From positions 93,332-157,331 of the forward strand of contig NZ_JAODIW010000008.1 of assembly GCF_026586625.1 (NCBI RefSeq): 64,000 nucleotides of DNA. Direction: 5' to 3'. The position numbers and the translations under genes are program-made. Positions 14,237 to 58,680 of the stretch are shown here, in pieces; the stretch's first letter is position 1, and the number at the start of each line of letters is the position of its first letter. Origin of the DNA: Halobium salinum. GTDB taxonomy: Archaea > Halobacteriota > Halobacteria > Halobacteriales > Haloferacaceae. A model generated the notes under the pieces. That model was given only the letters and a program-made list of their open reading frames with translations, did not search any database and was not told the DNA's origin.

Positions 14237-14698
14237 TTACTGGTAGTCGACCTCCCCTTCACCCTCGCCGATCCACGCGCCACGGTCGGGGTTCCGGGAG
14301 TTGAGCGGGTCGATGTCCTTGTACCACGGTACGTTCTTGAGCTGCTCCTTGTTGTAGACGAACTCGTCTTTCGTGTCCGCGGTGAACTCGAAGTTCTGCG
14401 TGAGCAGGATGGCGTCTACGGGGCAGACCTCCTCACAGAGTCGGCAGTAGATACACTGGCCGATGTGGAGGTTGTACTGTTCGCCGTTGCGCGAGCTGTC
14501 CGTGACGATCTGGATGGTGTCGTTCGGACAGACGTTCTCACACTGGCGACACCAGATGCAGCGCTCCTGGCTGAACTTGTGGACCCCGCGGAACCGGGGG
14601 CTCACCTCGGGTGCGACGTCCGGGTACTCGACCGTGAACGTCTCGCCGTCGAGCGCGTGCTTCAGCGTCGTCGCCATGCCTTTCAAAATTCCGATCAT
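14237..14698 (-). CDS. nuoI: NADH-quinone oxidoreductase subunit I (2x[4Fe-4S] ferredoxin)
   Basis: Internal ATG ([12 protein letters not shown]...) overlaps the nuoH stop (TAATG). Two CxxCxxCxxxCP motifs (CIWCRQCENVCP and CIYCRLCEEVCP). The upstream 260 aa of the long ORF is Arg-rich junk overlapping nuoH. Confidence 0.85.
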   Translation of the reverse strand: MIGILKGMATTLKHALDGETFTVEYPDVAPEVSPRFRGVHKFSQERCIWCRQCENVCPNDTIQIVTDSSRNGEQYNLHIGQCIYCRLCEEVCPVDAILLTQNFEFTADTKDEFVYNKEQLKNVPWYKDIDPLNSRNPDRGAWIGEGEGEVDYQ

Positions 14699-15954
14699 TA
14701 GATGATCACTCCCACGATGATGGCCGTGAGCACCAGGTTGGCGAAGGCGAGTTCGAGCATCCCCTTCCAACCGATTTCGATGAGCTGGTCGATGCGGACG
14801 CGGGGCACCGCCGACCGGCACCACTGGGTGAACAGGAAGAACGCCCAGATTTTGATGACGAACCAGACGAACCCGGGGATGAACCCGAGCGCCGGGACCG
14901 GCGGGGCGGCCCCGCCGAGGAACAGCACGGCCATCAGCGCGCCGCCCAGGAAGATGTGGATGAACTCCCCGAGGTAGAACAGCACGAAGTACACCGAGCT
15001 GTACTCGGTCTGGTACCCGGCGACGATTTCGGTCGGCGCCTCCGGAATGTCGAAGGGGTTCCGGCCGATTTCGGCCATGTTCGCCACGAGGAAGAGGACG
15101 AACGCGAACGGGTTGACGAACGCGAACCACGAGGGGATCGTCAGCGCGCCGGCCTCGATCAGCGGCTGGCTCTGCACGGCGACGATCTCGCTCATCCGCA
15201 GCGTCCCGGTGAAGATGACGACCGACGCGGCCGTCACCACGAGCGGAATCTCGTAGGCGAGGTTCTGCGCGATGGAGCGCAGCCCGCCGAGCATCGAGTA
15301 CTTGTTGTTCGAGGCGTAGCCGGCCATCACGAGGCCGAGCGAGGCGATGGAGGCCGCCGCGAAGGCGAACACCAGCCCCGTCTCGGGGTCGGCCAACTGG
15401 ATGCCGCTTCCCATCGGGATGACCGCGAACCCGAGCAGCGCCGAGAACGGCAGGATGATGGGCGCCAGGTCCCACGCCGGGCGGTCAGCGCCCTCGGGGA
15501 CGATGAGCTCCTTCGACAGGAGCCGGACGGCGTCGGCCACGATGATGAGCAGGCCGAACGGTCCGATACGGTTGACGGCGATGCGGTCCGTGAACGCGGC
15601 GGTAATCTTCCGCTTCGCCCACGGGCCGGCGACGGCCGTCATCGTGAGCATCACGTTGGCAATGAGGAACGCACCCAGCAGCGCGGCGACCGCGTCACCC
15701 CAGATGCCGAAGCCGTCGAGGCCCAGGAGGCCGGAGATGAGGTCCGGGAGCGGCGTCTCGGAGGTCGGCCCGGCGGCGGTCGCGTTGGTCGCGTTGCCGG
15801 CCGTGGCGTTGGTCGCGTTGCCGGCCGTGGCGTTGGTCGCGTTGCCGGCCGTGGCGTTGGTCGCGTTGCCGGCCGTGGCGTTCGTGGCGTTCCCCGTGGC
15901 GTTACCGCTGCCGTTCTGCTGGAGGAGTACCGAGGCGAGGTCGACCCCGCTCAT
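14698..15954 (-). CDS. nuoH: NADH-quinone oxidoreductase subunit H with unusual N-terminal N-A-T sequon tandem-repeat extension
   Basis: Core matches NuoH/ND1 (…[17 protein letters not shown]…, 8 TM segments). The start ATG overlaps the nuoCD stop. The N-terminal roughly 65 aa contain GNATGNATNATAGNATNATAGNATNATAGNATNATAGNATNATAAG. Confidence 0.85.
15781..15910. repeat. 24-nt perfect tandem repeat x4 (gcgttggtcgcgttgccggccgtg) plus degenerate copies, inside the nuoH 5' coding region
   Basis: Read directly from the sequence. On the minus strand it encodes (NATNATAG)n in the nuoH frame. Confidence 0.7.
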
Positions 15955-19793: not shown

Positions 19794-21047
19794 TCAGTCG
19801 GTCCGGAACGTCATCCGGTCGCGAACCTCCCGCGCCCGAGCGAGCAGGTCGTCGCGGGCGCTCTCGTCCTCCGGGTCGGCGTCGGCCGTCGCCGTGATGT
19901 GGCCCATCTTCCGGAGCGGGCGGGCCTCGCGCTTGCCGTACCAGTGGAGGCTGACGTTCTCGGCGGCGAGCGCGGCGTCGACACCCCGGAGTTCCGCCGT
20001 TGTGGGCTCCTCCACGTCGCCGAGGATGTTCGCCGAGACCGTCGGGGCACGCAGGGCGGTCGACCCGAGCGGCCAGCCGAGCACCGCGCGGACGTGCTGT
20101 TCGAACTGGGAGGTTCGGGCGCCCTCGATGGTCCAGTGCCCGGAGTTGTGCGGGCGCGGGGCGATTTCGTTGACCAGAATCTCGCCGTCGCTGTCTCGCG
20201 GGCCTCGCCCGCTCGACGTTCCCGAGCCGCGTTGTGGCTCGCACTCGAACAGTTCGATGCCGAACACCCCCCGACCGTCGAGCACGGCGAGCACGTCCTC
20301 GGCGACTTCGTGGGCGCGCTCTGCGACCGCGTCGCTCGTCCGGGCGGGGGCCACGGTCTCGCGCAGAATCTCCGCCTCGTGCACGTTCTCCCCGAGCGGG
20401 AACTGTCGGGTCCCGTTCTCGCCGCGGACGCCGACCACCGACACCTCGCGTTCGAAGTCGATCAGTTCCTCGGCGACCGCGGGGGCGTTTCCGATGTCGG
20501 CGAGCGCGGCCTCCGGGTCGTCGCCGGGCTCGACCGGAACGTTCCCCCGACCGTCGTAGCCGCCGGTGCGGGCCTTGAGCATGACGCCGCCGGACGGCGC
20601 GAACGCCTCGAGCGCCTCCCGGAGGTCGTCGGCGTCGTCGACGCGGCGGTAGCGGGGGACGGGCACGCCCGCCTCGTCGAGCGTCTGTTTCTCGAGGAGC
20701 TTGTCGCCGGTCGTCCGGAGCGCCTCGGGAGAGGGGTGGACCGGGACGTCGTACTCCTCGCGCACGCTCGCGAGCAGGTCGGGGTCCGCGAGCTCGATTT
20801 CGAACGTCAGGGCGTCGACGCGCTCGGCCAGCGACCGGACGGCGTCCGCGTCGTCGAACGCCCCGGCGACGGCGTCGGCGACCCGTCCCGCCGGCGGCTC
20901 CGGCGTCGGGTCCAGCACGACCACGTCGACTCCGAGCGGCGACGCCGCCTCGGCGAGCATCCGCCCGAGCTGGCCGCCGCCGACCACGCCGAGGGTCGGA
21001 CCGGGTACGGATATCGTCACGCGCGACGGTACCGGACGAACCTGCAT
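19794..21047 (-). CDS. purK: N5-carboxyaminoimidazole ribonucleotide synthase (ATP-grasp)
   Basis: …TLGVVGGGQLGRMLAEAA… at the N-terminus and ATP-grasp motifs (…ELIDFEREVSVVGVRGENG…). Internal ATG at 21045-21047 chosen because the upstream roughly 100 aa of the long ORF is Arg/Ser-rich and overlaps the tandem-repeat region. Confidence 0.8.
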   Translation of the reverse strand: MQVRPVPSRVTISVPGPTLGVVGGGQLGRMLAEAASPLGVDVVVLDPTPEPPAGRVADAVAGAFDDADAVRSLAERVDALTFEIELADPDLLASVREEYDVPVHPSPEALRTTGDKLLEKQTLDEAGVPVPRYRRVDDADDLREALEAFAPSGGVMLKARTGGYDGRGNVPVEPGDDPEAALADIGNAPAVAEELIDFEREVSVVGVRGENGTRQFPLGENVHEAEILRETVAPARTSDAVAERAHEVAEDVLAVLDGRGVFGIELFECEPQRGSGTSSGRGPRDSDGEILVNEIAPRPHNSGHWTIEGARTSQFEQHVRAVLGWPLGSTALRAPTVSANILGDVEEPTTAELRGVDAALAAENVSLHWYGKREARPLRKMGHITATADADPEDESARDDLLARAREVRDRMTFRTD

Positions 21048-21120
21048 AAGAGTTGCCGTCGGCGACCACTCGATATGCACGTCAATGCATACACTGCAGC
21101 CTGAAGCAGCGACGGCTCTG

Positions 21121-21300
21121 ACGGAACCGAACCGGTTCCGAGTGGACTCCGGACCGGCCCCGACCAGAACCGACACCGACTCCGGCTCCGAATCGGCTTC
21201 GGGCCGGCTCCGAACCAACTCCGAATCGGCTTCGGGCCGGCTCCGAACCAACTCCGAATCGACTTCGGACCGACTCCGACCGACTTCGGACCGACTACGC
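21121..21300. repeat. Intergenic tandem repeat (about 33-36 nt unit ccgaatcggcttcgggccggctccgaaccaact, about 3 copies) rich in small hairpins
   Basis: Two perfect unit copies at about 21186-21251 then diverged copies through about 21300, plus the palindrome GGAACCGaACCGGTTCC at 21122-21139. Each unit contains CCGAA-tcggc-TTCGG. Confidence 0.6.
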
Positions 21301-23340
21301 CGACGCCGCCCGCCGCGCCGCGACCGCCGAGGGCCGAACGACGTCGGCCGCTCCGGGAGCGGTAGCCACACTCCCGGGAGCGCCGATTACACCCCCGGAG
21401 ATGGACTGGCGGCCGTCGTCGGGAGCGTCGCGGTCGGTCCGCGTCGACGCCCGCAACGCGGACCGGTCGACGAAGATTACGACGTGCTCCCCCCAGAGCT
21501 TGAACCGGTGTTCACGCTTCTCGTACCCCGGGAGGTGCGGTTCGATATCCGACGCGTTCCACCGGTAGGCGACCACGACCGGCGGGGCGTCGTCGAGCAC
21601 CGCCGCGGTCGAGGCGTTCGGGTGCGAACTCGTCACGTTCGCGCCGTAGGATTCGAAGTACCACGGGATCGGGAGCCGGCTGTGCCAGGCGGGACCGCCG
21701 GGTGGCATCCGCTGGAGGCTGGATTCGTCTTTCACGTAGAACAGCGCGTCACTCATGTCGGACCGGTCGCAGGCTCCACCCGCGGGGTTGCAGGTGCCGA
21801 AGAACAGCACGTCCTCGCCCGGGTTGGTCCGGGAGACGCGCTCGACGTCCGCCAGCGTCTCCTTCAGGTCGTTCTCGGGCTGGGCCCACTGGAGTAGCTC
21901 CTTCTGGTCCTCGCTCGCGGCGTTCACGTAGGTCGCGTTGGCGCCGACGACCCCGACCATCGCGGCGAGAACGACGAGTGCGGCGATACCGGTGCCGACC
22001 GCGTCGTCGACGGAGAGCGAACGCCGGGCGACCCGGTAGACGTACCCGCCGCCGACGCCCGCCGGGATGGCGAAGGCGACGACGACGTGCACCGCGGCCC
22101 ACGGCGCCTGGATGTCGGTCGCGATGGGGTAGCCGACGAGCGAGGCGACGCCCCAGTACATCGAGAACGCGACGAGGTCGCGCGGGCGGTCCTCGCCGTA
22201 CCCGTCGGCGACGAACCCGATGAGCGCGAACACCAGCAGGACGCCGGAGCCGTACACGAGCGTCTCGACCAGGTCCTTCGCGTAGGGCGCGTAGTCGTGG
22301 CTCTGGTGGGTCCCGGACGCCCACGTCGAGTAGAACTTCTCCCACGAGCCGACGGTCGCCGTCTCGAACACCCCGGGCAACTGCGTGGGGTTCGCGAGCG
22401 CCGTCCACAGCTCCGGGCGCGGGGCGTAGAAGAAGACAGTGACCGCGAGGAACGCGAGCACGGCCCCGACGGAGTAGACGCCGACGAGGCCGACGCCCGT
22501 CCACAGGTCGCCGGCCCACGCCGACAGCCGGCGCCTCGTCCGCCGGAGTTCGCCCGCGAGGACGGCCCTGACGTTCAGGAGCGGCTCCGTCTCGGATTCG
22601 GCCTCCCCACCCCAGTCCGCGTCCGCGCTCGGGCCGGCGTCCTCGCCTCCGTCCGGAACCGACGGCGGGGTCGATTCGGCAGCGTGGGTCGGGGACCGAC
22701 GTGACTCCGACGCCGACCTCGCCTCGCGCGTGCGTCGGACGAGGTAGTGGTCGAAGAGGAGGACGCCCGCGCCGGCGAAACAGGCCAAGTAGAGCAGGCC
22801 GTTCTCCTTCGCCGCGAGGCCGGTCGCGAAGGCGGCGCCCGCCGGGACGAAGTAGGCGGGGTTGCGCCGGTCGATGCCGCGGACGACGAAGCCGAGCGCG
22901 AACACGGAGAACACGGCGACGATGACGTCGCTGCGCATGAACCGCGAGTAGTAGACGAGCAGGGGGTCGGCGGCGAGAAACAGCGAGAGCGCGACCGTCT
23001 CGGCATTTCTGAGCCGGTCACGGAAGAGGAGGGCGGCGAGGGGGAACAGCCCACCGACGACCGCGACGACGAGGCGGGCGCTGAAGTCGGTCGGCGGGAG
23101 GACCGTGAACACGTAGTCGTTGACGACCGGGAGGAAGGGTCCGTGGATGATGGGTCGGTAGAAGAACTCCCCGTTCTCGTGGTACCGGAGAATCCAGTAG
23201 CCGACCCGACCTTCGTCCCAGTGCATGACTCGCGCGCCGAGGCCGACGAGGCGGACGGCGAGGGCGAGTGCGGCCACCGCGAGCACCCCGAGTGCGGTCG
23301 CATCGAGGCCGCCGCGGGAGCCGACTCCGTCGGTTCGCAT
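21295..23340 (-). CDS. Multi-pass membrane glycosyltransferase, GT-C fold (PMT_2/ArnT-like; TIGR03663/Agl23- or AglS-type)
   Basis: ATG at 23338-23340 (MRTDGVGSRGGLDATALGVLAVAALALAV…). First-loop HWDEGRVGY matches the GT-C DE-type motif. At least 10 TM segments and a large C-terminal soluble domain. The upstream 290 aa of the 973 aa ORF is Arg-rich junk. Confidence 0.55.
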   Translation of the reverse strand: MRTDGVGSRGGLDATALGVLAVAALALAVRLVGLGARVMHWDEGRVGYWILRYHENGEFFYRPIIHGPFLPVVNDYVFTVLPPTDFSARLVVAVVGGLFPLAALLFRDRLRNAETVALSLFLAADPLLVYYSRFMRSDVIVAVFSVFALGFVVRGIDRRNPAYFVPAGAAFATGLAAKENGLLYLACFAGAGVLLFDHYLVRRTREARSASESRRSPTHAAESTPPSVPDGGEDAGPSADADWGGEAESETEPLLNVRAVLAGELRRTRRRLSAWAGDLWTGVGLVGVYSVGAVLAFLAVTVFFYAPRPELWTALANPTQLPGVFETATVGSWEKFYSTWASGTHQSHDYAPYAKDLVETLVYGSGVLLVFALIGFVADGYGEDRPRDLVAFSMYWGVASLVGYPIATDIQAPWAAVHVVVAFAIPAGVGGGYVYRVARRSLSVDDAVGTGIAALVVLAAMVGVVGANATYVNAASEDQKELLQWAQPENDLKETLADVERVSRTNPGEDVLFFGTCNPAGGACDRSDMSDALFYVKDESSLQRMPPGGPAWHSRLPIPWYFESYGANVTSSHPNASTAAVLDDAPPVVVAYRWNASDIEPHLPGYEKREHRFKLWGEHVVIFVDRSALRASTRTDRDAPDDGRQSISGGVIGAPGSVATAPGAADVVRPSAVAARRAASA

Positions 23341-23504
23341 ACCCGGTACCTCCGGACCGACGACTACAACTCTTGTGCTCTGCGTCGGCGAGAGCGGACG
23401 GGGATGCGCCTCCGACACCGTCGCGTCGCGCAGACCGCCGTAGCGGCCTCGGACGGCGCTTAGCCGGTGCATAGTAAACCCCGACGCGCCGGAACCGTCG
23501 GTGC

Positions 23505-24143
23505 ATGCGAAGACGCCGCCTCCTCGGAGCCCTCGGCGCACTCGTCGGACTGGCCGGCTGTGGTGCCGGTACCGACGGTGGGTCGACGGTCCACACCGTC
23601 GGCCCGAACGCGACGAGCGACACCGACGAGGGCGCCGCCGACGCCGGCGCCGAAGGGACGACTGCGGACACGACCGCCACCGCGACCGGGACGGACGGGT
23701 CGAGTGGGACAGACGAGACGAGTGGGACGGGCGAATCGAGCGGGACGAACGGGACCGGCGGCGCGGGCACGGGTGACGGGTCGGCTTCCGACGGCGCCGC
23801 TGGTGCGAGCGGGAACGGAACGGGGAACGGAACGGGCGGAGGCGGACCCGACGAGAGCGGCGGCGGCCCCGGGAACGGCTCGGGGAGCGGTGCAGGCGGG
23901 GGCCCGAACGGCACCGGTGCCGGAGGCGGTACCCGGACCGGGGCGAACGGGACCGGCGCCGCCGACGGTGGTGGGACGAACAACGGGACGACGGGCGACC
24001 GGGCGCTCGGCAACGGGACGAGCGACGGAACAGTCGGCAACGGAACGGCCGGTAACGGAACTGGGGGCACCGCCGGAGGGAACGGGACCGGGGACCGGAG
24101 CGAAGACGACACCGGGAACGGCTCGAGCGGCGGCGCGTTCTAG
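23505..24143 (+). CDS. Tat-secreted lipoprotein, G/T/N/D-rich low complexity with about 15 N-x-T/S sequons
   Basis: Twin-arginine plus lipobox: MRRRRLLGALGALVGLAGC. The remainder is ...NGTGGAGTGDGS…NGTGNGTGGGG…NGSGSG…NGTGAGGG…NGTGAADGGGTNNGTTGD…NGTSDGTVGNGTAGNGTGGTAGGNGTGD…NGSSGG. Confidence 0.6.
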   Translation: MRRRRLLGALGALVGLAGCGAGTDGGSTVHTVGPNATSDTDEGAADAGAEGTTADTTATATGTDGSSGTDETSGTGESSGTNGTGGAGTGDGSASDGAAGASGNGTGNGTGGGGPDESGGGPGNGSGSGAGGGPNGTGAGGGTRTGANGTGAADGGGTNNGTTGDRALGNGTSDGTVGNGTAGNGTGGTAGGNGTGDRSEDDTGNGSSGGAF

Positions 24144-24252
24144 TCGGCCGCGGTCGGGGACGGTGTGGGATTCGCCAACAGACATATGCCGACCCCCGCC
24201 GTACCGTAGGTTGCAACCTGAGACGTACGCTTCGTCTACGATGGAGCGGTCG

Positions 24253-24395
24253 TCGGGTTGCGGCATTCCGGCACTCGCCCCCCGGCGGGTGTTTTCGAGC
24301 GCGTCACACCCCTCAGATACGTATATATCGATGCCCTTCGTAGAGGACGCCGTCTGCTCAGTCACTGGGCAGACATCGGAATGCCGCAACCCTTC
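24253..24395. repeat. Perfect 16-bp inverted repeat (GGGTTGCGGCATTCCG / CGGAATGCCGCAACCC) flanking a roughly 105 bp core containing a TATATAT tract and an internal hairpin
   Basis: Read directly from the sequence: the left arm is at 24255-24270 and the right arm at 24376-24391. Inside is GTCTGCTCAG-tca-CTGGGCAGAC. Beyond the arms lie direct-repeat-like gggtgttttcgagcg and ggggttttcccgagcg. It sits in a 476-bp intergenic region. Confidence 0.45.
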
Positions 24396-24619
24396 GCGGG
24401 GTTTTCCCGAGCGGGGCGGCTTCCGCGGAATGTAGGCAGTTACCGTCCGCCACGCGGGTGGTATCGCGCCTGCACTCTGTCACGGACTCCGAGCCCGTGC
24501 GAACGCACGTCTCGTACGCCTCGAGCGATGCGACTGGTCGGTGGATTACTGAGGACTCCCGGACGGTTTCCCGACGACCACCGGAACCGATTCCCACCCC
24601 GGCCCCGACTGACGGCACG

Positions 24620-24907
24620 ATGAGTGACCACGACGAGCACGGCACCGGCGAGGACTCGACGGACGTGGACGCTGAAGCGCGCGACCAGGCCGGCGACCTC
24701 GAGTCGGTCGCGCTGCCCATCACGGTGTCTGTCGACGTCGCCGAGACCATCCTCGAAGAGCTCGAAGCCGGCCGGTCCGTCGAGGCGGAGCTGGACCCGG
24801 AGCTGATGCCGCAGCTCGCGGAGCGAATCCGGTGGCAACTGGCGCACGGCCGACGAATCACGGAGCTCGTGGCCGAGTACGACGACGAGCGCGAATCGGA
24901 GGAGTAG
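24620..24907 (+). CDS. Small acidic hypothetical protein (95 aa)
   Basis: ATG at 24620 (MSDHDEHGTGEDSTDVDAEARDQAGDLESVALPITVSVDVAETILEELEAGRSVEAELDPELMPQLAERIRWQLAHGRRITELVAEYDDERESEE). The antisense 301 aa ORF is Ser-rich and was rejected. Confidence 0.4.
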   Translation: MSDHDEHGTGEDSTDVDAEARDQAGDLESVALPITVSVDVAETILEELEAGRSVEAELDPELMPQLAERIRWQLAHGRRITELVAEYDDERESEE

Positions 24908-25038
24908 GTCGCGAGCGGGTCGGCCCCGGCGGACGGCGAGGGCGAGCCGACCACGCCGGGTCGGCGACCTGTCGCCGACCCGGCATCCGGATTACGGGTA
25001 TGGAACCTTTCTTTTAGCGGGACCGTGAACCGACGCGC

Positions 25039-25443
25039 ATGGTCGCACTCGGACTGGTGGTCGCGCGCTTCAACGCGTCGGTCACCGAAGAGATGGAAGC
25101 ATCGGCTCGCGACGCCGCTCAGGACCGCGGCGCCGACGTGGTCGAGACGGTACACGTCCCGGGCGCGTACGACGCCCCGCTCGCCGCGGACCGCCTCGCC
25201 CGCCGCGACGACGTCGACGCCGTCGCCGTCGTCGGCGCCATCGTCACCGGCGATACGAACCACGACGAGGTCATCGGACAGGCCGCCGCCGACGCGCTCA
25301 CGCGAGTGAGCCTCGACCGCGACAAACCGGTCACCTTCGGCGTGAGCGGTCCCGGTCAGAGCGGCGCTGAGGCCCGGGATCGCGTCGGGAAGGGCGCCGA
25401 AGCGGTGGACGCCGCCGCCGACCTCACGGAGGCCCTGCCATGA
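25039..25443 (+). CDS. ribH: 6,7-dimethyl-8-ribityllumazine synthase
   Basis: 134 aa. MVALGLVVARFN…VVETVHVPGAYDAPLAA… matches the archaeal lumazine synthase pattern. Confidence 0.85.
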   Translation: MVALGLVVARFNASVTEEMEASARDAAQDRGADVVETVHVPGAYDAPLAADRLARRDDVDAVAVVGAIVTGDTNHDEVIGQAAADALTRVSLDRDKPVTFGVSGPGQSGAEARDRVGKGAEAVDAAADLTEALP

Positions 25444-26594
25444 GCTTCGAGTTCGACTTCGCCGAGCGCGTCGAGCGCGTCGAGCCGAGCGCGACGCTCG
25501 CCATCAGCAACGCCGCGAACGAACTCCGGGCGCAGGGTGAGGACGTCGTCGACCTCTCGGTCGGCGCCCCCGACTTCCCCACCCCGGAGAACGTCACGCA
25601 GGCCGGCAAGGACGCCATGGACGCCGGCCACACCGGCTACACCTCCTCGAACGGCGTCCCCGAACTGAAGGAGGCCATCGCCGAGAAACTGCAGGGTGAC
25701 GGCGTCGACGCCGCGCCCGGCGAGGTCATCGTCACGCCCGGCGCGAAGCAGGCGCTGTACGAGACGGTCCAGACCCTCGTCGACGACGGGGACGAGGTCG
25801 TCCTGTTCGATCCAGCGTGGGTCTCCTACGAGGCGATGGTCAAGCTCGCCGGCGGGTCGCTGAACCGCGTCGACACCGCGCCGTACGACTTCCAGCTCGA
25901 ACCCGCCCTCGACGACTTCGCGGAGGCCGTCTCCGACGACACCGAACTCGTCGTCGTCAACTCCCCGTCGAACCCGACGGGCGCGGTGTACTCCGACGCG
26001 GCCCTCGAAGGCGTGGCCGACCTCGCCGTCGACCACGACTTCGCCGTCATCTCCGACGAGATATACGAGAAAATCACCTACGGCGTCGAGCCGACCAGCC
26101 TCGCGACGTTCGACGGGATGAGAGAGCGGACGGTGACCATCAACGGGTTCTCGAAGGCGTACTCGATGACGGGGTGGCGCCTCGGCTACCTCCACGCGCC
26201 GGAGGAGCTGATTTCGCAGGCCGGTAAGCTCCACTCGCACTCGGTGTCGTGTGCGACGAACTTCGTCCAGCGCGCGGGCATCGAGGCGCTCCGCAACACC
26301 GACGACGCCGTCGAGGAGATGGTCGGCGCCTTCGAGGAGCGCCGGGACCTGCTCGTCGACCGTTTCGGCGACCTCGGCGTCGACGTGGCCGTCCCCGACG
26401 GCGCGTTCTACATGATGCTCCCGGTCGACGAGGACGACTCGGCGTGGTGTGAGGAGGTCATCGAGGAGGCCCACGTCGCCACGGTTCCGGGGAGCGCGTT
26501 CGGCTCTCCCGGCTACGCGCGCATCTCCTACGCCGCGAGCACCGAACGGCTGAACGAGGCCGTCGACCGCCTCGACGCGGGCGGCTTCTTCTGA
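25440..26594 (+). CDS. Pyridoxal-phosphate-dependent aminotransferase class I/II (aspartate aminotransferase-like)
   Basis: …VVNSPSNPTGAVYS… and …NGFSKAYSMTGWRLGY… (PLP lysine motif SKxxxxTGxR). ATGA overlap with ribH. Confidence 0.85.
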   Translation: MSFEFDFAERVERVEPSATLAISNAANELRAQGEDVVDLSVGAPDFPTPENVTQAGKDAMDAGHTGYTSSNGVPELKEAIAEKLQGDGVDAAPGEVIVTPGAKQALYETVQTLVDDGDEVVLFDPAWVSYEAMVKLAGGSLNRVDTAPYDFQLEPALDDFAEAVSDDTELVVVNSPSNPTGAVYSDAALEGVADLAVDHDFAVISDEIYEKITYGVEPTSLATFDGMRERTVTINGFSKAYSMTGWRLGYLHAPEELISQAGKLHSHSVSCATNFVQRAGIEALRNTDDAVEEMVGAFEERRDLLVDRFGDLGVDVAVPDGAFYMMLPVDEDDSAWCEEVIEEAHVATVPGSAFGSPGYARISYAASTERLNEAVDRLDAGGFF

Positions 26595-38145: not shown

Positions 38146-40035
38146 TCAGTCCTGGGCGGACTCCGCGCCCTCGACCCGCTCTCCCACGTCCGCGGACTCG
38201 TCGACCGCGGTGGTGAGCGAGACGTTGAGCGACGCCATCGAGACGACCCCGCCGGCGAGGGTGACGAGGTTCTTCACGGCGTGGTCGACGAACGCGGCGC
38301 CGACCACGACGGCGGGAGAGATGGCCGGGACGAGGACGACGACGAGCACGGTGAAGGCGGCCTCGTACAGTCCGATGCCGCCGGGCGACAGCGGGAGCAC
38401 CTTCGCGAGGTTGCCGACGCTCACCGCGAAGAAGGAGACGGCGAGCAGGTAGCCGAGCGGGACGCCGGCGGGGATTCCGAACGCCAGCAGGACGAGGAAC
38501 GCGGTGAGCACGTCGAGCGTCCAGATGGCGAGACTCGACAGGCCGACGCGGGCGAACGCGCCGGGCGTGCCGGCCGCCCGCTGGAGGTCGCCGACGAACC
38601 GCTCGACGACCCCGGCGACCATGTCCGCGTAGGAGTCGTCACTGAGGCGAGCGACGACCGGGCGCACGAGGTTGCGCTCGGAGCGCGCGGAGGCGACGAT
38701 GGCGACGACGGCGCCGACCGCGGCGACGCCGACGAACGCGGCGACGCCGGCCGCGACGCGAGCCGCGTTCTTGTCCACGTCGCCGACGGTGCCCGAGCCG
38801 GTGATGCCGACGATTAGCTCCGTGGTGCGGCCGGTGGCGACGAGTCCGACGAAGACGAGGCCAGCGAGTGCGACCAGCGAGAGCAGGTCGAACACCCGCT
38901 CTGCGGCGAGGGAGGCGAACCCGGAGGCGTACGGGATGCGCCGGCGGGCCTTCACGACGTACGCGCGCACGGCGTCGCCGGCGCGGGCCGGGAAGACGAG
39001 GTTCCCCGTCTGGCTGATGAAGATGGCCCCCGTCAGGAAGCCGACCGACTCGCGATACCCCAACTCGGAGAGGATGTCGCGGTAGCGCGTCCCCCGGAGG
39101 GGCCACGAGAACAGGTAGACCAGCGCCGCGCCGGCGATGAGCGCCGGGTCGGCCTCGCTGGCGCGGGCGACAACCTGCTCGAAGTCGATGTACAGCGTCA
39201 TCAGCCCGACCGCGACGACCGTCATCAGGATGCCGACGGCCATCGAGACCTTCCGAGTGATACGGGGTTGAACCGACAGCTCCCACCACGTCCGGAGAAC
39301 CTGACTCCCCATCCCGAGCACGTCGCGGACGAGGTCGACTTTCGTGTCACCCTTCGGCGTCCAGTCGACCGGGAACTCGGCGACGCGGTACCCCCGACGC
39401 TGAGCGCGCACGAGCAGTTCGGTGTCCCAGAACCAGTGGTTGTCGCGGATGTCGTGGTGGAGCACCTCGAACGCCTCCCGCGAGACGGCCTTGAATCCGC
39501 ACTGGTGGTCACGTAGGGAAGACCGGAGGAAGAGCCGCACGAACCCGTTGTAGACGCGGCTCGGGACGCCCCGTTTCGGCGGTCGGTCCGCGGTGCGGCC
39601 GGGCATCCAGCGCGAGCCGGTCGCCACGTCGGCCTCGCCGGAGCGCACCGTCTCGACGAGCTCCTCGAGGTGACGCATGTCGGTCGCGAGGTCGGTGTCG
39701 AAGTACACCAGCACGTCGCCGTCGGCGGCGGCGAAGGCCCGCTCCAAGGCGCCGCCGCGACCGAGGCGCTCGTCGCTGTGGAAGTGTCGGACCCGGGCGT
39801 CCTCGGCGGCGAGGCGACCGGCGATGTCGGGCGTGGCGTCGTCACAGCCGTCCTCCGCAACCATCACCTCGAAGCTCCCGCTCGGAAGGAAGCGTGAGAG
39901 CGTCGACAGCGTCTCGCGGACCGTCCCCTCAATGGTCTGCGCCTCGTTGTACGCGGGGAGGACGACGCTCACCTCGACGCTCGCGGGGGACCGGCGAGCC
40001 TCAGGTGCGTCGGCCGCGGCGGCCGGGCCACTCAT
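38146..40035 (-). CDS. GT2 dolichyl-phosphate hexosyltransferase fused to flippase-like (lysyl-PG synthase TM-type) membrane domain; AglD-like
   Basis: The N-terminal GT-A domain (VSVVLPAYNEAQTIEGTV…) has DxD motifs (EDGCDD and YFDTDLA). The C-terminal roughly 330 aa has about 8 TM segments and a PGGIGLYEAAF motif. Internal ATG (MSGPAAAAD…) used. Confidence 0.65.
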   Translation of the reverse strand: MSGPAAAADAPEARRSPASVEVSVVLPAYNEAQTIEGTVRETLSTLSRFLPSGSFEVMVAEDGCDDATPDIAGRLAAEDARVRHFHSDERLGRGGALERAFAAADGDVLVYFDTDLATDMRHLEELVETVRSGEADVATGSRWMPGRTADRPPKRGVPSRVYNGFVRLFLRSSLRDHQCGFKAVSREAFEVLHHDIRDNHWFWDTELLVRAQRRGYRVAEFPVDWTPKGDTKVDLVRDVLGMGSQVLRTWWELSVQPRITRKVSMAVGILMTVVAVGLMTLYIDFEQVVARASEADPALIAGAALVYLFSWPLRGTRYRDILSELGYRESVGFLTGAIFISQTGNLVFPARAGDAVRAYVVKARRRIPYASGFASLAAERVFDLLSLVALAGLVFVGLVATGRTTELIVGITGSGTVGDVDKNAARVAAGVAAFVGVAAVGAVVAIVASARSERNLVRPVVARLSDDSYADMVAGVVERFVGDLQRAAGTPGAFARVGLSSLAIWTLDVLTAFLVLLAFGIPAGVPLGYLLAVSFFAVSVGNLAKVLPLSPGGIGLYEAAFTVLVVVLVPAISPAVVVGAAFVDHAVKNLVTLAGGVVSMASLNVSLTTAVDESADVGERVEGAESAQD

Positions 40036-40221
40036 TGGGAGCCTCTCACCCCGGCGAGTGTAAGAACTTTCTGTCTCGCCGGAGGTCGGCCGTCTCCCGC
40101 TCCGAGATGCGCTGTGGCGACGAGACGCTCCGTCCGGACGGTTCGACCCCGAAAACCAGTTGTCCAGATTATCAATCAGTACGCCGAACATTTTTCACGG
40201 TGGACTGTGAGAGGCCAGTCG

Positions 40222-40858: not shown

Positions 40859-41977
40859 ATGGCACCCGAAACCGAAACGGACGCAGCCCCGAACGCAGCC
40901 GCGGACGACGCCGAGGCTTCGAGTTCCGACGCGGCGTTCGGCGACGAGTCGAGCGCCGCCCAGCGAACCGCGGTCGGCGTCAAACTCGGCAGTACCCGGA
41001 CCGTACTCTCGATGGGTCGCGACGAGGAACGACGCGTCGTGAAGACGCTCACCTGTCTCGCCACGTACGAGGACGCCCTCACGGGCGACGAGCGCGTCCT
41101 CTACGGCGAGACGGCCGCCGCCGAGTACCCCGACCGCGTCCAGTACATGCTCCGCTCCGGCCTCCCGGAGGACGACGAGCGCGCCGAACTCACCGAGCGC
41201 TTCTTCGCCGAACTGCTCCGTTCGGAGTCGGTTCCCGAGGACAGCGGCGTCGTCTACGCCATCCCGACCATCGACAACGAGCCCGGGCTGGAGAACCTCG
41301 GCGCGGTCGTCGAGGACAGCGAAATCGGCTCCGAGGGCGTCCGTTCGTACCCCGAGTCGCTCTGTGGCGCCATCCCGGCGATGGGCGACGGCCTCGAAGC
41401 CATCAACGACATCTTCGTCTCCATCAACCTCGGCTCGACGAACCTCGAGGCCTGTGCGTACCGCCGCGGCGAGCAGCTCGCCCCGTGGGCGACGGGCGCC
41501 GTCACCGGCGTCGGCGTCGACCGGGCCATCACGGGCTACGTCGAGGAGGAGACCCAGCGCCGGGTCACCGTCGACCAGCAGACCGCCCGCGAGTACAAGG
41601 AACAGCACGCCGACTTCGTCGACTACGAGCCGTTCACGGACATCGTCCAGCAGCCCGGCGGCGGCTCCCACGAGTTCACCATCGAGTGGGCGGTCATGGA
41701 CGCCGTCGACGAGTTCGTCGACGCCGCCGTCGAGGCCGTCGCCGACGACTTCCTCCCCGGCGTCGCCCAGGAGCACGTCCGCGTCTACCGCCGCGCCCTC
41801 GACCGACCCATCGTCCTCACGGGCGGGATGGCCTGCATCCCCGGCCTCGTCGAGGAGTTCGAGACCCGTCTGAGCGAGACGCTCGACCGCGAGGTCACCT
41901 GCGTCGCCCCCGACGACCCCGAGCTGGCGGCCGCCGAGGGCGCCCAGCGCATCGCCGAGCGCCTGCTCGAGAACTGA
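40859..41977 (+). CDS. Actin-fold (ASKHA superfamily, MreB/ParM/actin-like) ATPase
   Basis: Phosphate-1 VGVKLGSTRTVLS, phosphate-2 VSINLGSTNLEACAY, and adenosine motif VLTGGMACIPGLVEEFETRLSE. 372 aa with an acidic N-terminus. Confidence 0.55.
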   Translation: MAPETETDAAPNAAADDAEASSSDAAFGDESSAAQRTAVGVKLGSTRTVLSMGRDEERRVVKTLTCLATYEDALTGDERVLYGETAAAEYPDRVQYMLRSGLPEDDERAELTERFFAELLRSESVPEDSGVVYAIPTIDNEPGLENLGAVVEDSEIGSEGVRSYPESLCGAIPAMGDGLEAINDIFVSINLGSTNLEACAYRRGEQLAPWATGAVTGVGVDRAITGYVEEETQRRVTVDQQTAREYKEQHADFVDYEPFTDIVQQPGGGSHEFTIEWAVMDAVDEFVDAAVEAVADDFLPGVAQEHVRVYRRALDRPIVLTGGMACIPGLVEEFETRLSETLDREVTCVAPDDPELAAAEGAQRIAERLLEN

Positions 41978-53276: not shown

Positions 53277-53948
53277 TCAGTTCGCGGTCGTGTTGCCGGC
53301 CGTCGAATTACCCATCGTCTCGTTGCCCATCGTCGTGTTTCCGGTCGCGTTGCCGCCCGAGAGGTTCCCCTCGTCGCCGGCCGTCTGTGCGACGTCGCCG
53401 TCGAGGTTGACCGTGTAGTTCGTCACTTCGGCCATCTGGGCCTCCTCGAACACGACGTCGAAGTCCCAGGACTCTCCCGTCGGGAGGCCGGCGGTCTGGG
53501 CCTCCTCGGTTTCGTCGACGAACTCGTAGAGGACCTCACCTTGGTCGTCCTGGAGCGTGACCTCGGCTTCGACGGTCTCGTAGGCCTGCTCACCGGTGTT
53601 CTCGACCGTCCCGCGGAGACCGACCTCGCCGTTGGTCTGGTAGAGTTCACGGGTCGTGACCTCCAGACCCTCGGGCGAATCACCGATTTCACCGTCGACG
53701 TCGACGACGTCGCCGTCGGTCCCTGCGGCACTCTCGTTGCCGCCGGACTCGTTGCCGGCCATCGACTCGTTACCCGCCATCGACTCGTTGCCGGCGGTCC
53801 CGTTGTCGGTGGCCTCACTACCGCTCTCGTTCTCTGCGGAGGCGTTCTCGCTCCCGCCACCCGACTGTCCGCCACAGCCGGCGAGCGCCATCCCGCCGGC
53901 GACCGCGCCTGCCGTCTTCAGCAGTTTGCGTCGATGCATCACGTCCAC
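53277..53948 (-). CDS. Tat-secreted lipoprotein with sequon-rich (N-E-S / N-x-T) low-complexity termini flanking an acidic globular core
   Basis: RRKLLKTAGAVAGGMALAGC (Tat plus lipobox). The N-terminal region contains …NASAENESGSEATDNGTAGNESMAGNESMAGNESGGNES…. The C-terminus ends …NLSGGNATGNTTMGNETMGNSTAGNTTAN. Confidence 0.55.
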   Translation of the reverse strand: MDVMHRRKLLKTAGAVAGGMALAGCGGQSGGGSENASAENESGSEATDNGTAGNESMAGNESMAGNESGGNESAAGTDGDVVDVDGEIGDSPEGLEVTTRELYQTNGEVGLRGTVENTGEQAYETVEAEVTLQDDQGEVLYEFVDETEEAQTAGLPTGESWDFDVVFEEAQMAEVTNYTVNLDGDVAQTAGDEGNLSGGNATGNTTMGNETMGNSTAGNTTAN

Positions 53949-57483: not shown

Positions 57484-58680
57484 ATGGATAGAATTCGGGC
57501 ACTGCTGTCGGGCACTCGTCGGTTGGTGACCGTCGCGGCCGTCCTCGTCCTCGTCGCCGCCGGCGTGGCGGTGGCGACGGGCGTCTTCGGCGCCCCGTCG
57601 GTGGCGGGCGTCGACAACCGTTTCGGCCCCGTCGACGACGAGACGACCGCCGTCGAGACCGACCTCCACGTGTCGAACCCGAACCCACTCGGCGTGTCGT
57701 TCGGGGACGCGACGGTCGACTACGCGGTGTCGATGAACGGGGTCGGGATGGCCGAAGGGACGAAGTCGGGCGTCGCGCTCGACCGCGGAGCGTCGACCCT
57801 CGCCTTTCGCACCGACATGCACAACGAGCGCATCCCCGACTGGTGGGTGAGCCACGTCCGAAACGACGAGCGGACGACGCTGACCGTCGACGCGTCGGTC
57901 TCCTCGCCCCTCCTCGGCGGAGCGGGCGTCGACGCGCCGGCGGTCGAGCGCGAGGTCGAAACGGACCTCGTCGGCGGGTTCGCCTCGAACGAGACGCGGC
58001 CGGTGAACGCGAGCCGGCCGCTCGTCTCGGACCCCGTCCTCTACGTCAACGAGACCGACGCCGCGTGGGGCGAGGTGAACGACTCCGCGACGCCCATCGA
58101 CACGAACTTCACGCTCTACAACCCGAAGCCGGTCCCCGTCGCGCTGACGGAGGTCGGCTACACCGTGACGATGAACGACGTGACCGTCGGCCAGGGGGCA
58201 TCCGACCGCACGTACGTCGTCCCGAGCGGGGAGGCTCGCACGCTGGAGACGACGACGCGAATCGACAACTCGGAGCTCGACGAGTGGTGGGTCAGCCACC
58301 TCCAGCGGAACCAGACCACCGACCTCCGCATCGAGTTCTACGCGACGCTCCGAGTCGGCGGCGACTCGATTCGCGTCCCGCTGGACTCGCTGACCTACGA
58401 GAAGACGTTCGAGACGGACGTGTTCGGGACGAAGGCCGACGGGGGCGAGGTCGCGAACGCGAGTGGAGGGTCGACGACCGCGACCACCACGGCGACCGAC
58501 GGCGAGTCGGGGTCCGAGGGGACGACGGGTACGACGGCCGGCGGGTCGACGACGACCGCGACCACCACGACCGACGCCGGCGGTCTGTTCGGAGGCGGCG
58601 ACGGGAACGGGAGCGCCGGCGACGGCGGCGGACCGGGGACGACCACGACCGACGACGGCCTGCTCGGCCTCCGGTCGTAG
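57484..58680 (+). CDS. Signal-anchored LEA_2 (LEA14/WHy-like) tandem-domain protein with Thr/Gly-rich C-tail
   Basis: N-terminal TM anchor, then two repeats of the LEA_2-type pattern (…DLHVSNPNPLGVSFGDATVDYAVSMNGVGMAEG… and …NFTLYNPKPVPVALTEVGYTVTMNDVTVGQGAS…). C-terminal …GGSTTATTTATDGESGSEGTTGTTAGGSTTTATTTTD…. Confidence 0.6.
   Translation: MDRIRALLSGTRRLVTVAAVLVLVAAGVAVATGVFGAPSVAGVDNRFGPVDDETTAVETDLHVSNPNPLGVSFGDATVDYAVSMNGVGMAEGTKSGVALDRGASTLAFRTDMHNERIPDWWVSHVRNDERTTLTVDASVSSPLLGGAGVDAPAVEREVETDLVGGFASNETRPVNASRPLVSDPVLYVNETDAAWGEVNDSATPIDTNFTLYNPKPVPVALTEVGYTVTMNDVTVGQGASDRTYVVPSGEARTLETTTRIDNSELDEWWVSHLQRNQTTDLRIEFYATLRVGGDSIRVPLDSLTYEKTFETDVFGTKADGGEVANASGGSTTATTTATDGESGSEGTTGTTAGGSTTTATTTTDAGGLFGGGDGNGSAGDGGGPGTTTTDDGLLGLRS

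Follow-up and report, generated by a model that had tools for sequence, protein, structure and literature searches.

The closest described relative of the protein analyzed here is Agl23 of Haloarcula hispanica, which belongs to the NCBIfam family TIGR03663 and contains PMT_2 and Agl23_C domains. According to Lu et al. (2020, Mol Microbiol 114:762), as cited in PMC11182771, it is required for the use of hexose-phosphodolichol (hexose-P-dolichol) on the external side of the membrane, and PMC11182771 describes Agl23 either as a flippase for hexose-P-dolichol or as a flippase-associated protein. The purified H. hispanica protein moves M5GN2-PP-lipid across the liposome membrane and rescues the yeast rft1-delta mutant (Chen et al. 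2024, PMC11182771). Glycoproteomics of Haloferax volcanii showed that proteins of the Tat(lipobox) and Sec(lipobox) classes, where Tat denotes twin-arginine translocation, carry N-glycans whose attachment depends on AglB (Schulze et al. 2021, PMC8241124). Here, these systems are compared with a locus of Halobium salinum in which agl23 is divergent from the gene for a small lipoprotein. The locus lies in a 64-kb stretch of DNA (64,000 nucleotides of haloarchaeal sequence, 65-73% GC), which is called the window below. The public gene annotation was taken from the contig matching the window, JBHSDS010000010.1 of GCA_042651865.1, in which both genes are called:

21295-23340, minus strand: agl23, encoding a 681-amino-acid membrane protein of the GT-C fold, named flippase activity-associated protein Agl23
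23505-24143, plus strand: gene for a lipoprotein of 212 amino acids with a disordered, sequon-dense mature part, as judged from the sequence, the public annotation and the positional orthologues

An earlier note on this DNA had placed the two genes at these positions, which is confirmed, and had regarded them as a dedicated glycosyltransferase beside its own substrate. The results described below are best explained by two unrelated genes lying back to back, namely, Agl23 at its usual place and a lipoprotein inserted in one lineage, which are accidental neighbors; the probability of this reading is estimated to be about 0.75.

The translation of agl23 begins with MRTDGVGSRGG and matches, at 100% identity, the NCBI entry of the same name from Halobium salinum. 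Its match to TIGR03663 reaches 375 bits over profile positions 3-434 of 435, where the curated NCBIfam cut-off is 126.25 bits. The N-terminal membrane domain matches PF13231 (PMT_2) at 46.1 bits, relative to a cut-off of 26.1 bits, and PF26681 (Agl23_C) is precomputed for exactly this protein. These profile searches, which the earlier note had proposed as a check, bear out its assignment of the gene to the GT-C family. The gene is already known and correctly annotated as Agl23, and no new name is needed. Two parts of the protein are considered in the following analysis:

23197-23223, minus strand: HWDEGRVGY (residues 40-48), a DE-type motif in the first external loop, directly after the first transmembrane helix (TM1, helix 14-35 in the model)
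21421-21903, minus strand: Agl23_C (PF26681), a soluble alpha/beta domain of about residues 480-640, with secondary structure taken from the model and predicted to face outside

The motif is found at the residues where it had been reported before. In an alignment of 66 homologues, H40, D42, E43, R45, V46 and W49 are invariant, and W41, G44 and Y48 are conserved in at least 90% of the sequences. The conserved acidic residues of this loop, a feature of GT-C glycosyltransferases, are D42 and E43, for which a catalytic use is hypothetical. In the model, the Agl23_C domain comes after the last membrane helix, and it contains three of the four sequons of Agl23 (N568, N575 and N595).

The search of PDB sequences with the Agl23 profile gave only chance matches to CopC (E = 0.27), and no solved structure was detectable in this manner; therefore, the fold was examined using an AlphaFold model, calculated on the 66-sequence alignment (pLDDT 83.3, pTM 0.84), and Foldseek. 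The best matches of the model in PDB were the ArnT structures 5F15 and 5EZM (E = 5.8e-8, probability 1.0), and further matches included STT3/oligosaccharyltransferase, PglB, Pmt4, ALG12, ALG9 and EmbB. At the level of the model, this confirms that the membrane domain of Agl23 has a GT-C fold, which is superimposable on ArnT, PMT and STT3. The earlier claim of more than 10 transmembrane helices is plausible, as about 13-15 helices precede residue 475 in the model; however, the exact count is not settled, because a crude hydropathy scan fuses the helices into 9 merged segments.

Agl23 resembles ArnT, PMT and STT3 (PDB 5F15, 9I5K, 6S7O and 3RCE) in the fold of its membrane domain (Foldseek E = 6e-8 for ArnT), in the acidic motif of the first external loop and in having a polyprenyl-phosphate sugar as the substrate. 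However, the sequence identity to these proteins is only 9-15%, and the activity published for Agl23 is the translocation of a lipid-linked sugar rather than a demonstrated transfer. The transfer of glycans to Asn is the task of the STT3/AglB enzymes, of which WWDxG is the characteristic motif. This motif is present neither in Agl23 nor in any frame of the 64-kb window.

The identity of the Halobium protein is approximately 45% to a Haloarcula orthologue (locus L057) and 53% to the Haloferax volcanii protein. It is about 100 amino acids longer than most orthologues; the additional residues form a loop of low confidence (about 215-255) and a C-terminal tail that is disordered (645-681). By comparison with H. 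hispanica Agl23, the same function may be assigned to the Halobium protein. From its family identity and the published role, Agl23 is therefore named here as a general component of the pathway.

The neighbors of agl23 in the window were mapped onto 80 species loci, which were collected by an alignment-driven scan with one genome per species and in which Agl23 is 43-60% identical to the window protein. Scans were also made on 84 loci, L001 to L084; of these, L081 and L082 are the window's own contigs, and L083/L084 represent the closest metagenome relative, whose Agl23 is 74% identical. A second scan covered 80 metagenome loci, 73 of which had sufficient upstream sequence. The flanking genes in the window are as follows:

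19794-21020, minus strand: purK (Pfam PurK_C and ATP-grasp), the same-strand gene downstream of agl23; purE and the nuo operon come next
25039-25443, plus strand: ribH, encoding lumazine synthase (PF00885), the ancestral divergent neighbor of agl23
24620-24907, plus strand: gene for an acidic protein of 95 amino acids, called in the public annotation, the second clade-specific gene in the gap between ribH and agl23

The conserved order is aspC <- ribH <- / -> agl23 -> purK -> purE -> nuoA. As in Haloferax and other Halobacteria, the window thus has agl23 in a conserved haloarchaeal locus with purK and purE as neighbors, and purK lies downstream on the same strand in 72 of the 80 species loci as well as in the window. 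On the other side, ribH is directly divergent from agl23 in 52 of the 80 species loci, with 96-484 bp between the matches (within a limit of 500 bp), and it directly adjoins agl23 (500 bp or less upstream) in 42 of the 73 metagenome loci. The gap between ribH and agl23 is enlarged in nine of the species loci, where it contains unrelated genes; on inspection of the sequences, these include a long multi-pass-like membrane open reading frame, an alcohol-dehydrogenase-like open reading frame, a larger protein with a Tat signal and small membrane proteins. In the remaining 19 of the 80, ribH was not found upstream of agl23 within the fetched locus.

A related lipoprotein beside agl23 is found in the relatives only at L083, L084 and L001, a metagenome-assembled genome among the species loci, whose Agl23 is 59% identical. 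The scan of all 84 loci for upstream sequon clusters and open reading frames with a lipobox was positive only at L081, L082, L083, L084 and L001. Such a gene is accordingly absent upstream of agl23 in 79 of the 80 species loci, L001 being the sole exception, and it is present in none of the 73 metagenome loci. Patterns for the lipoprotein motifs gave 96 matches on metagenome sequence, none of which was confirmed, and matches of a loose lipobox expression in the metagenome loci L104, L134 and L135 were rejected as off-frame artefacts.

These counts bear directly on the proposal that Agl23 glycosylates the adjacent lipoprotein directly and that a divergent promoter region regulates both genes together. 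In favor of such a pair are the GT-C fold of Agl23 with its invariant external DE motif, the retention of the arrangement in the window, L083/L084 and L001, and the strong excess of sequons in the lipoprotein described below. The mark of a dedicated pair would be an adjacency conserved wherever the gene of the enzyme occurs, whereas agl23 stands without such a neighbor at all 73 metagenome loci and at all but one of the 80 species loci. Moreover, glycosylation of Asn belongs to STT3/AglB, whose WWDxG motif Agl23 does not have, the two promoter-like blocks are separate with a spacer that is not conserved, and the other sequon-dense proteins of the window are encoded away from agl genes. The published role of Agl23 is also the general handling of hexose-P-dolichol (PMC11182771). 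The pairing is not supported, because the adjacency, whose absence in relatives would in the words of the earlier note speak against it, is indeed absent outside a narrow clade. A dedicated pair is, on this evidence, highly improbable, and the adjacency of the lipoprotein gene should not be read as evidence for a substrate of Agl23.

The start codons of agl23 and the lipoprotein gene are separated by the positions 23341-23504. The divergent gap described previously is confirmed, although its length is 164 bp rather than 165 bp. Two elements are found in it:

23365-23380, minus strand: GAGCACAAGAGTTGTA, an element of 16 nt at -41 to -26 relative to the ATG of agl23, a putative BRE/TATA-like core promoter (BRE, transcription factor B recognition element) or transcription-factor site
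23458-23480, plus strand: GCTTAGCCGGTGCATAGTAAACC, at -47 to -25 relative to the ATG of the lipoprotein gene, a putative promoter-like block of the lipoprotein gene's own

The alignment of the divergent regions reveals two separate conserved blocks with an intervening spacer that lacks conservation and is partly deleted in L083. The idea of a promoter shared by the two genes does not hold against these separate blocks and the variable spacer, as no sign of a regulatory element common to agl23 and the lipoprotein gene was found in the aligned intergenic regions. The element GAGCACAAGAGTTGTA, which is unique in the window and includes an ACAA-N3-TTGT palindrome, is found upstream of agl23 in 54 of the 84 loci with three mismatches or fewer, in many genera and irrespective of the upstream gene. 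It is located at -41 or -42 in nine loci, in seven of which the match starts at query residue 1. This conservation is unusually strong for an intergenic site, and the element probably serves either as a core promoter, from which a leaderless mRNA is made, or as the binding site of a regulator. The element GCTTAGCCGGTGCATAGTAAACC is also unique in the window; it is identical in L083 at 23 of 23 positions and absent from L001. The positions of both elements fit those of BRE/TATA in leaderless haloarchaeal transcripts, which suggests a role as promoters. In a separate Rfam scan of positions 20500-25500, a sub-threshold match to NiCo in the agl23 coding region (22.9 bits, relative to 37 bits) was taken as chance.

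The lipoprotein itself consists of the following parts, all on the plus strand:

23505-23561, plus strand: signal peptide MRRRRLLGALGALVGLAGC, in which a twin-arginine n-region is followed by an h-region and the lipobox LAGC, as read from the sequence
23583-23615, plus strand: STVHTVGPNAT, the sole conserved segment of the mature lipoprotein, which holds the first sequon
23748-24125, plus strand: Gly/Thr/Asn low-complexity tail, which holds 12 of the 13 sequons according to the cluster scan

The twin arginine, the hydrophobic stretch and the lipobox Cys are all present in this order, and Gly makes up 35% and Thr 16% of the mature part, most of the remainder being Ala, Ser, Asp and Asn. The description of the protein as a twin-arginine lipoprotein stands with respect to the RR signal and the LAGC lipobox, but the Tat route, which the RRxLL sequence would suggest, is only a predicted one, since the Pfam model TAT_signal is silent. 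Lipidation and glycosylation are likewise predicted. Scans with Pfam and NCBIfam assigned the lipoprotein to no family.

The positional orthologues of the lipoprotein have 127 amino acids in L083 and 230 in L001, compared with 212 in the window. Between the window and L083 the identity is 65% over the first 37 aligned codons; the L083 protein begins with MHRRALLGALAGLAGLGGCLSDTGSKVHTVGANAT, which is followed by a Thr/Gly/Asn tail in which six of the eight Asn of the protein lie in sequons. The L001 protein has the RR signal, the lipobox and GS-VHTV in common with the window protein and then continues with a Lys-rich linker and a globular part of about 100 amino acids; its residues 1-112 match the window gene in tblastn with E = 3e-9 (small database). 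The signal peptide, the lipobox and VHTVG-NAT are kept in L083 and partly in L001. Residues R3, R4, L7, G18 and C19 of the signal peptide are invariant in the three orthologues, as are G26, S27 and V29-H30-T31-V32. The different lengths suggest that the tail expands and contracts rapidly. As a separate observation, the Agl23 protein of L001 (5959-7971, plus strand) has a sequon-rich tail of its own at the C-terminal end, NQSANATEPTDVNRSTNATASADANRSNSS, with six sequons within 60 amino acids.

The lipoprotein open reading frame might instead be a decaying remnant, or a non-functional frame of low complexity, which has lost an ancestral globular C-terminal domain of the type seen in L001. This would account for the missing C-terminal globular part in the window version and for the variable length of the tail. 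The third-codon-position GC content (GC3) of 0.82, compared with 0.86-0.94 in ribH, nuoCD, aspC, pyk and agl23, points in the same direction, as do the lack of a family or an HMMER homologue and the non-coding stretch of 476 bp at the 3' side of the gene. However, the reading frame is open in both versions of the Halobium clade, and the start, the RR, the lipobox Cys and VHTVG-NAT are kept at the identity given above, together with the fully identical promoter-like block in L083. The fraction of Asn in sequons, 13 of 14 in the window and 6 of 8 in L083, would not be kept under neutral decay. The C-terminal domain of L001 has also left no trace, either downstream of the window gene or in L083 (best E = 0.2). 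Decay is quite unlikely in view of these results, and the lipoprotein gene is a real, lineage-restricted and fast-evolving gene.

The adjoining acidic protein of 95 amino acids has an orthologue of 97 amino acids at the same place in L083. It gave no tblastn match in the 80 species loci and no Pfam or NCBIfam family. The stretch without a called gene between the lipoprotein gene and this gene is at 24144-24620, and a block of about 100 bp in it (about 24377-24473) is 75% identical to the corresponding spacer of L083.

The 13 sequons of the lipoprotein comprise 10 NGT, two NGS and one NAT, and 13 of its 14 Asn residues lie within them. The previous description of the mature part as saturated with sequons is correct in that the excess is real, whereas the number is 13 and not about 15. 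In 20,000 shuffles of the mature part, the number of sequons was 3.6 +/- 1.6 with a maximum of 11, and never reached 13. As the background, 61 other open reading frames of the window, chosen on GC3, were used; in these, 56 of 341 Asn (16%) are in sequons (Fisher p = 2.5e-9), and the density is 0.33 per 100 amino acids, compared with 6.1 in the lipoprotein. Because both the shuffles and the background fall far short of the observed values, the excess is not a by-product of the composition. Tandem repeats of the DNA were considered as a source of the sequons and rejected; the repeats in the gene are short (12-18 bp), account for only a few sequons and cover a minority of the sites. The excess makes a role of the lipoprotein as a glycosylated protein of the cell surface plausible.

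In the interpretation as accidental neighbors, agl23 would remain at its ancestral position, be transcribed from its own ancestral promoter and work as in other haloarchaea, where Agl23 would supply or use hexose-P-dolichol at the outer face for the whole machinery of N- and O-glycosylation rather than for a single client. The lipoprotein gene and the adjoining gene for the 95-amino-acid acidic protein would have been inserted, in the Halobium lineage, into an intergenic region that is a hot spot of variation. The lipoprotein would be exported, probably by Tat, anchored to a lipid at Cys19 and expose a disordered Gly/Thr/Asn stalk. After translocation, the general oligosaccharyltransferase AglB would modify the 13 N-x-S/T sequons, giving a small glycan-bearing peptide at the surface, and the completion of these glycans would depend on Agl23 merely as that of every glycoprotein does.

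The lipoprotein is most likely an ordinary substrate of AglB, by analogy with Haloferax volcanii, where AglB-dependent N-glycans on lipobox proteins therefore provide a precedent for such a substrate. The Haloferax glycoproteins have lipobox signal peptides and are modified by AglB on N-x-S/T after export (PMC8241124), and the same is predicted for the window lipoprotein. However, the Haloferax glycoproteins listed there have 1-5 mapped sites, whereas the window lipoprotein lacks any globular domain and has 13 sequons. This protein is an orphan of a familiar kind, that is, one of the exported haloarchaeal proteins with glycosylated low-complexity linkers, and it is unusual solely in consisting wholly of linker.

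Several points weigh against this interpretation. The conserved external DE motif may mean that Agl23 is a true glycosyltransferase using hexose-P-dolichol, and not a flippase alone; in that case, it may act on surface glycoproteins, this lipoprotein included. The combination of a GT-C fold and an invariant DE motif with the label of a flippase is a genuine conflict in the field, to which this locus brings no new evidence. With regard to the lipoprotein, TAT_signal gave no match at E values up to 1, and a phmmer-type search of 5.8 billion proteins gave nothing at E values up to 1e-3, not even the self-match, which is probably missing because of the composition correction. The mature part has neither a globular domain nor an HMMER homologue, so a decaying gene is possible. 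Finally, the divergent arrangement is kept in three lineages (the window, L083/L084 and L001) over a range of 59-100% identity of Agl23, and therefore a selective reason for the linkage in this clade remains conceivable.

The last point leads to a linkage that is specific to the clade and falls short of an enzyme-substrate pair, in which the lipoprotein would be a minimal N-glycan-bearing component of a glycocalyx or hydration layer, and its position would tune its expression with the supply of the glycan donor. The persistence of the arrangement down to 59% identity of Agl23, the extreme density of sequons (6.1 compared with 0.33 per 100 amino acids) and the sequon-rich C-terminal tail of the L001 Agl23 itself are consistent with this linkage. 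However, the two promoter blocks are independent and separated by a variable spacer, simple inheritance of one insertion event could suffice, and no agl gene adjoins the comparable sequon-dense lipoprotein encoded at 53277-53939. A linkage of this type is distinctly improbable. A related proposal concerns the protein rather than the locus: the lipoprotein could be a minimal lipid-anchored "N-mucin" of Halobium without a folded domain, which serves as a hydration layer, a glycocalyx or a decoy for viruses, with the position beside agl23 kept for tuning to the donor supply. If this were true, its sole job would be to display about a dozen N-glycans on the surface of the membrane; the proposal is unlikely.

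Three further sequon-dense exported or membrane proteins are encoded in the 64 kb, and none of them adjoins an agl gene:

14698-15954, minus strand: NuoH, a subunit of the NADH dehydrogenase-like complex (PF00146, 330 bits)
53277-53939, minus strand: second Tat lipoprotein, MHRRKLLKTAGAVAGGMALAGC, with an FxLYD/DUF3426 domain between two sequon-rich linkers
57484-58680, plus strand: membrane-anchored protein with an LEA_2 domain, matched in two stretches, with eight sequons and a Thr/Gly-rich C-terminal tail

NuoH has an N-terminal extension of about 60 amino acids with a GNATNATA repeat and about 12 sequons, which is encoded by a 24-bp tandem repeat at 15774-15903 (5.5 copies, 93% match). In the second Tat lipoprotein, 14 of 18 Asn are in sequons, and its linkers are made of NES, NGT and NxT repeats. 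Like the lipoprotein beside agl23, it has an RR signal, an AGC lipobox and linkers rich in Gly, Asn and Thr(Ser); in contrast, it includes a folded domain (FxLYD), N-E-S or N-x-T accounts for most of its sequons, and no agl gene is next to it.

The lipoprotein beside agl23 would be part of a genome-wide habit of placing sequon-dense linkers on exposed segments of proteins. Together with the NuoH repeat and the other proteins of the window, a lipoprotein that consists only of sequons suggests a heavy decoration of exposed disordered segments with N-glycans in Halobium salinum. If so, this species would be a convenient organism for studying the function of dense N-glycan brushes in haloarchaea.

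Two other regions of the window were recorded. At 38146-40191 (minus strand), a fusion protein of 681 amino acids combines a GT2 glycosyltransferase domain with a flippase-like LPG_synthase_TM domain (TIGR00374). Weakly similar to the models of AglJ and a dolichyl-phosphate hexose transferase, it is a candidate dolichol-phosphate sugar synthase at a distance of about 15 kb from agl23. The gene at 40859-41977 (plus strand) encodes salactin, a recently described haloarchaeal homologue of actin (PF25229, 584 bits), and is followed by an uncharacterised open reading frame of 342 amino acids.

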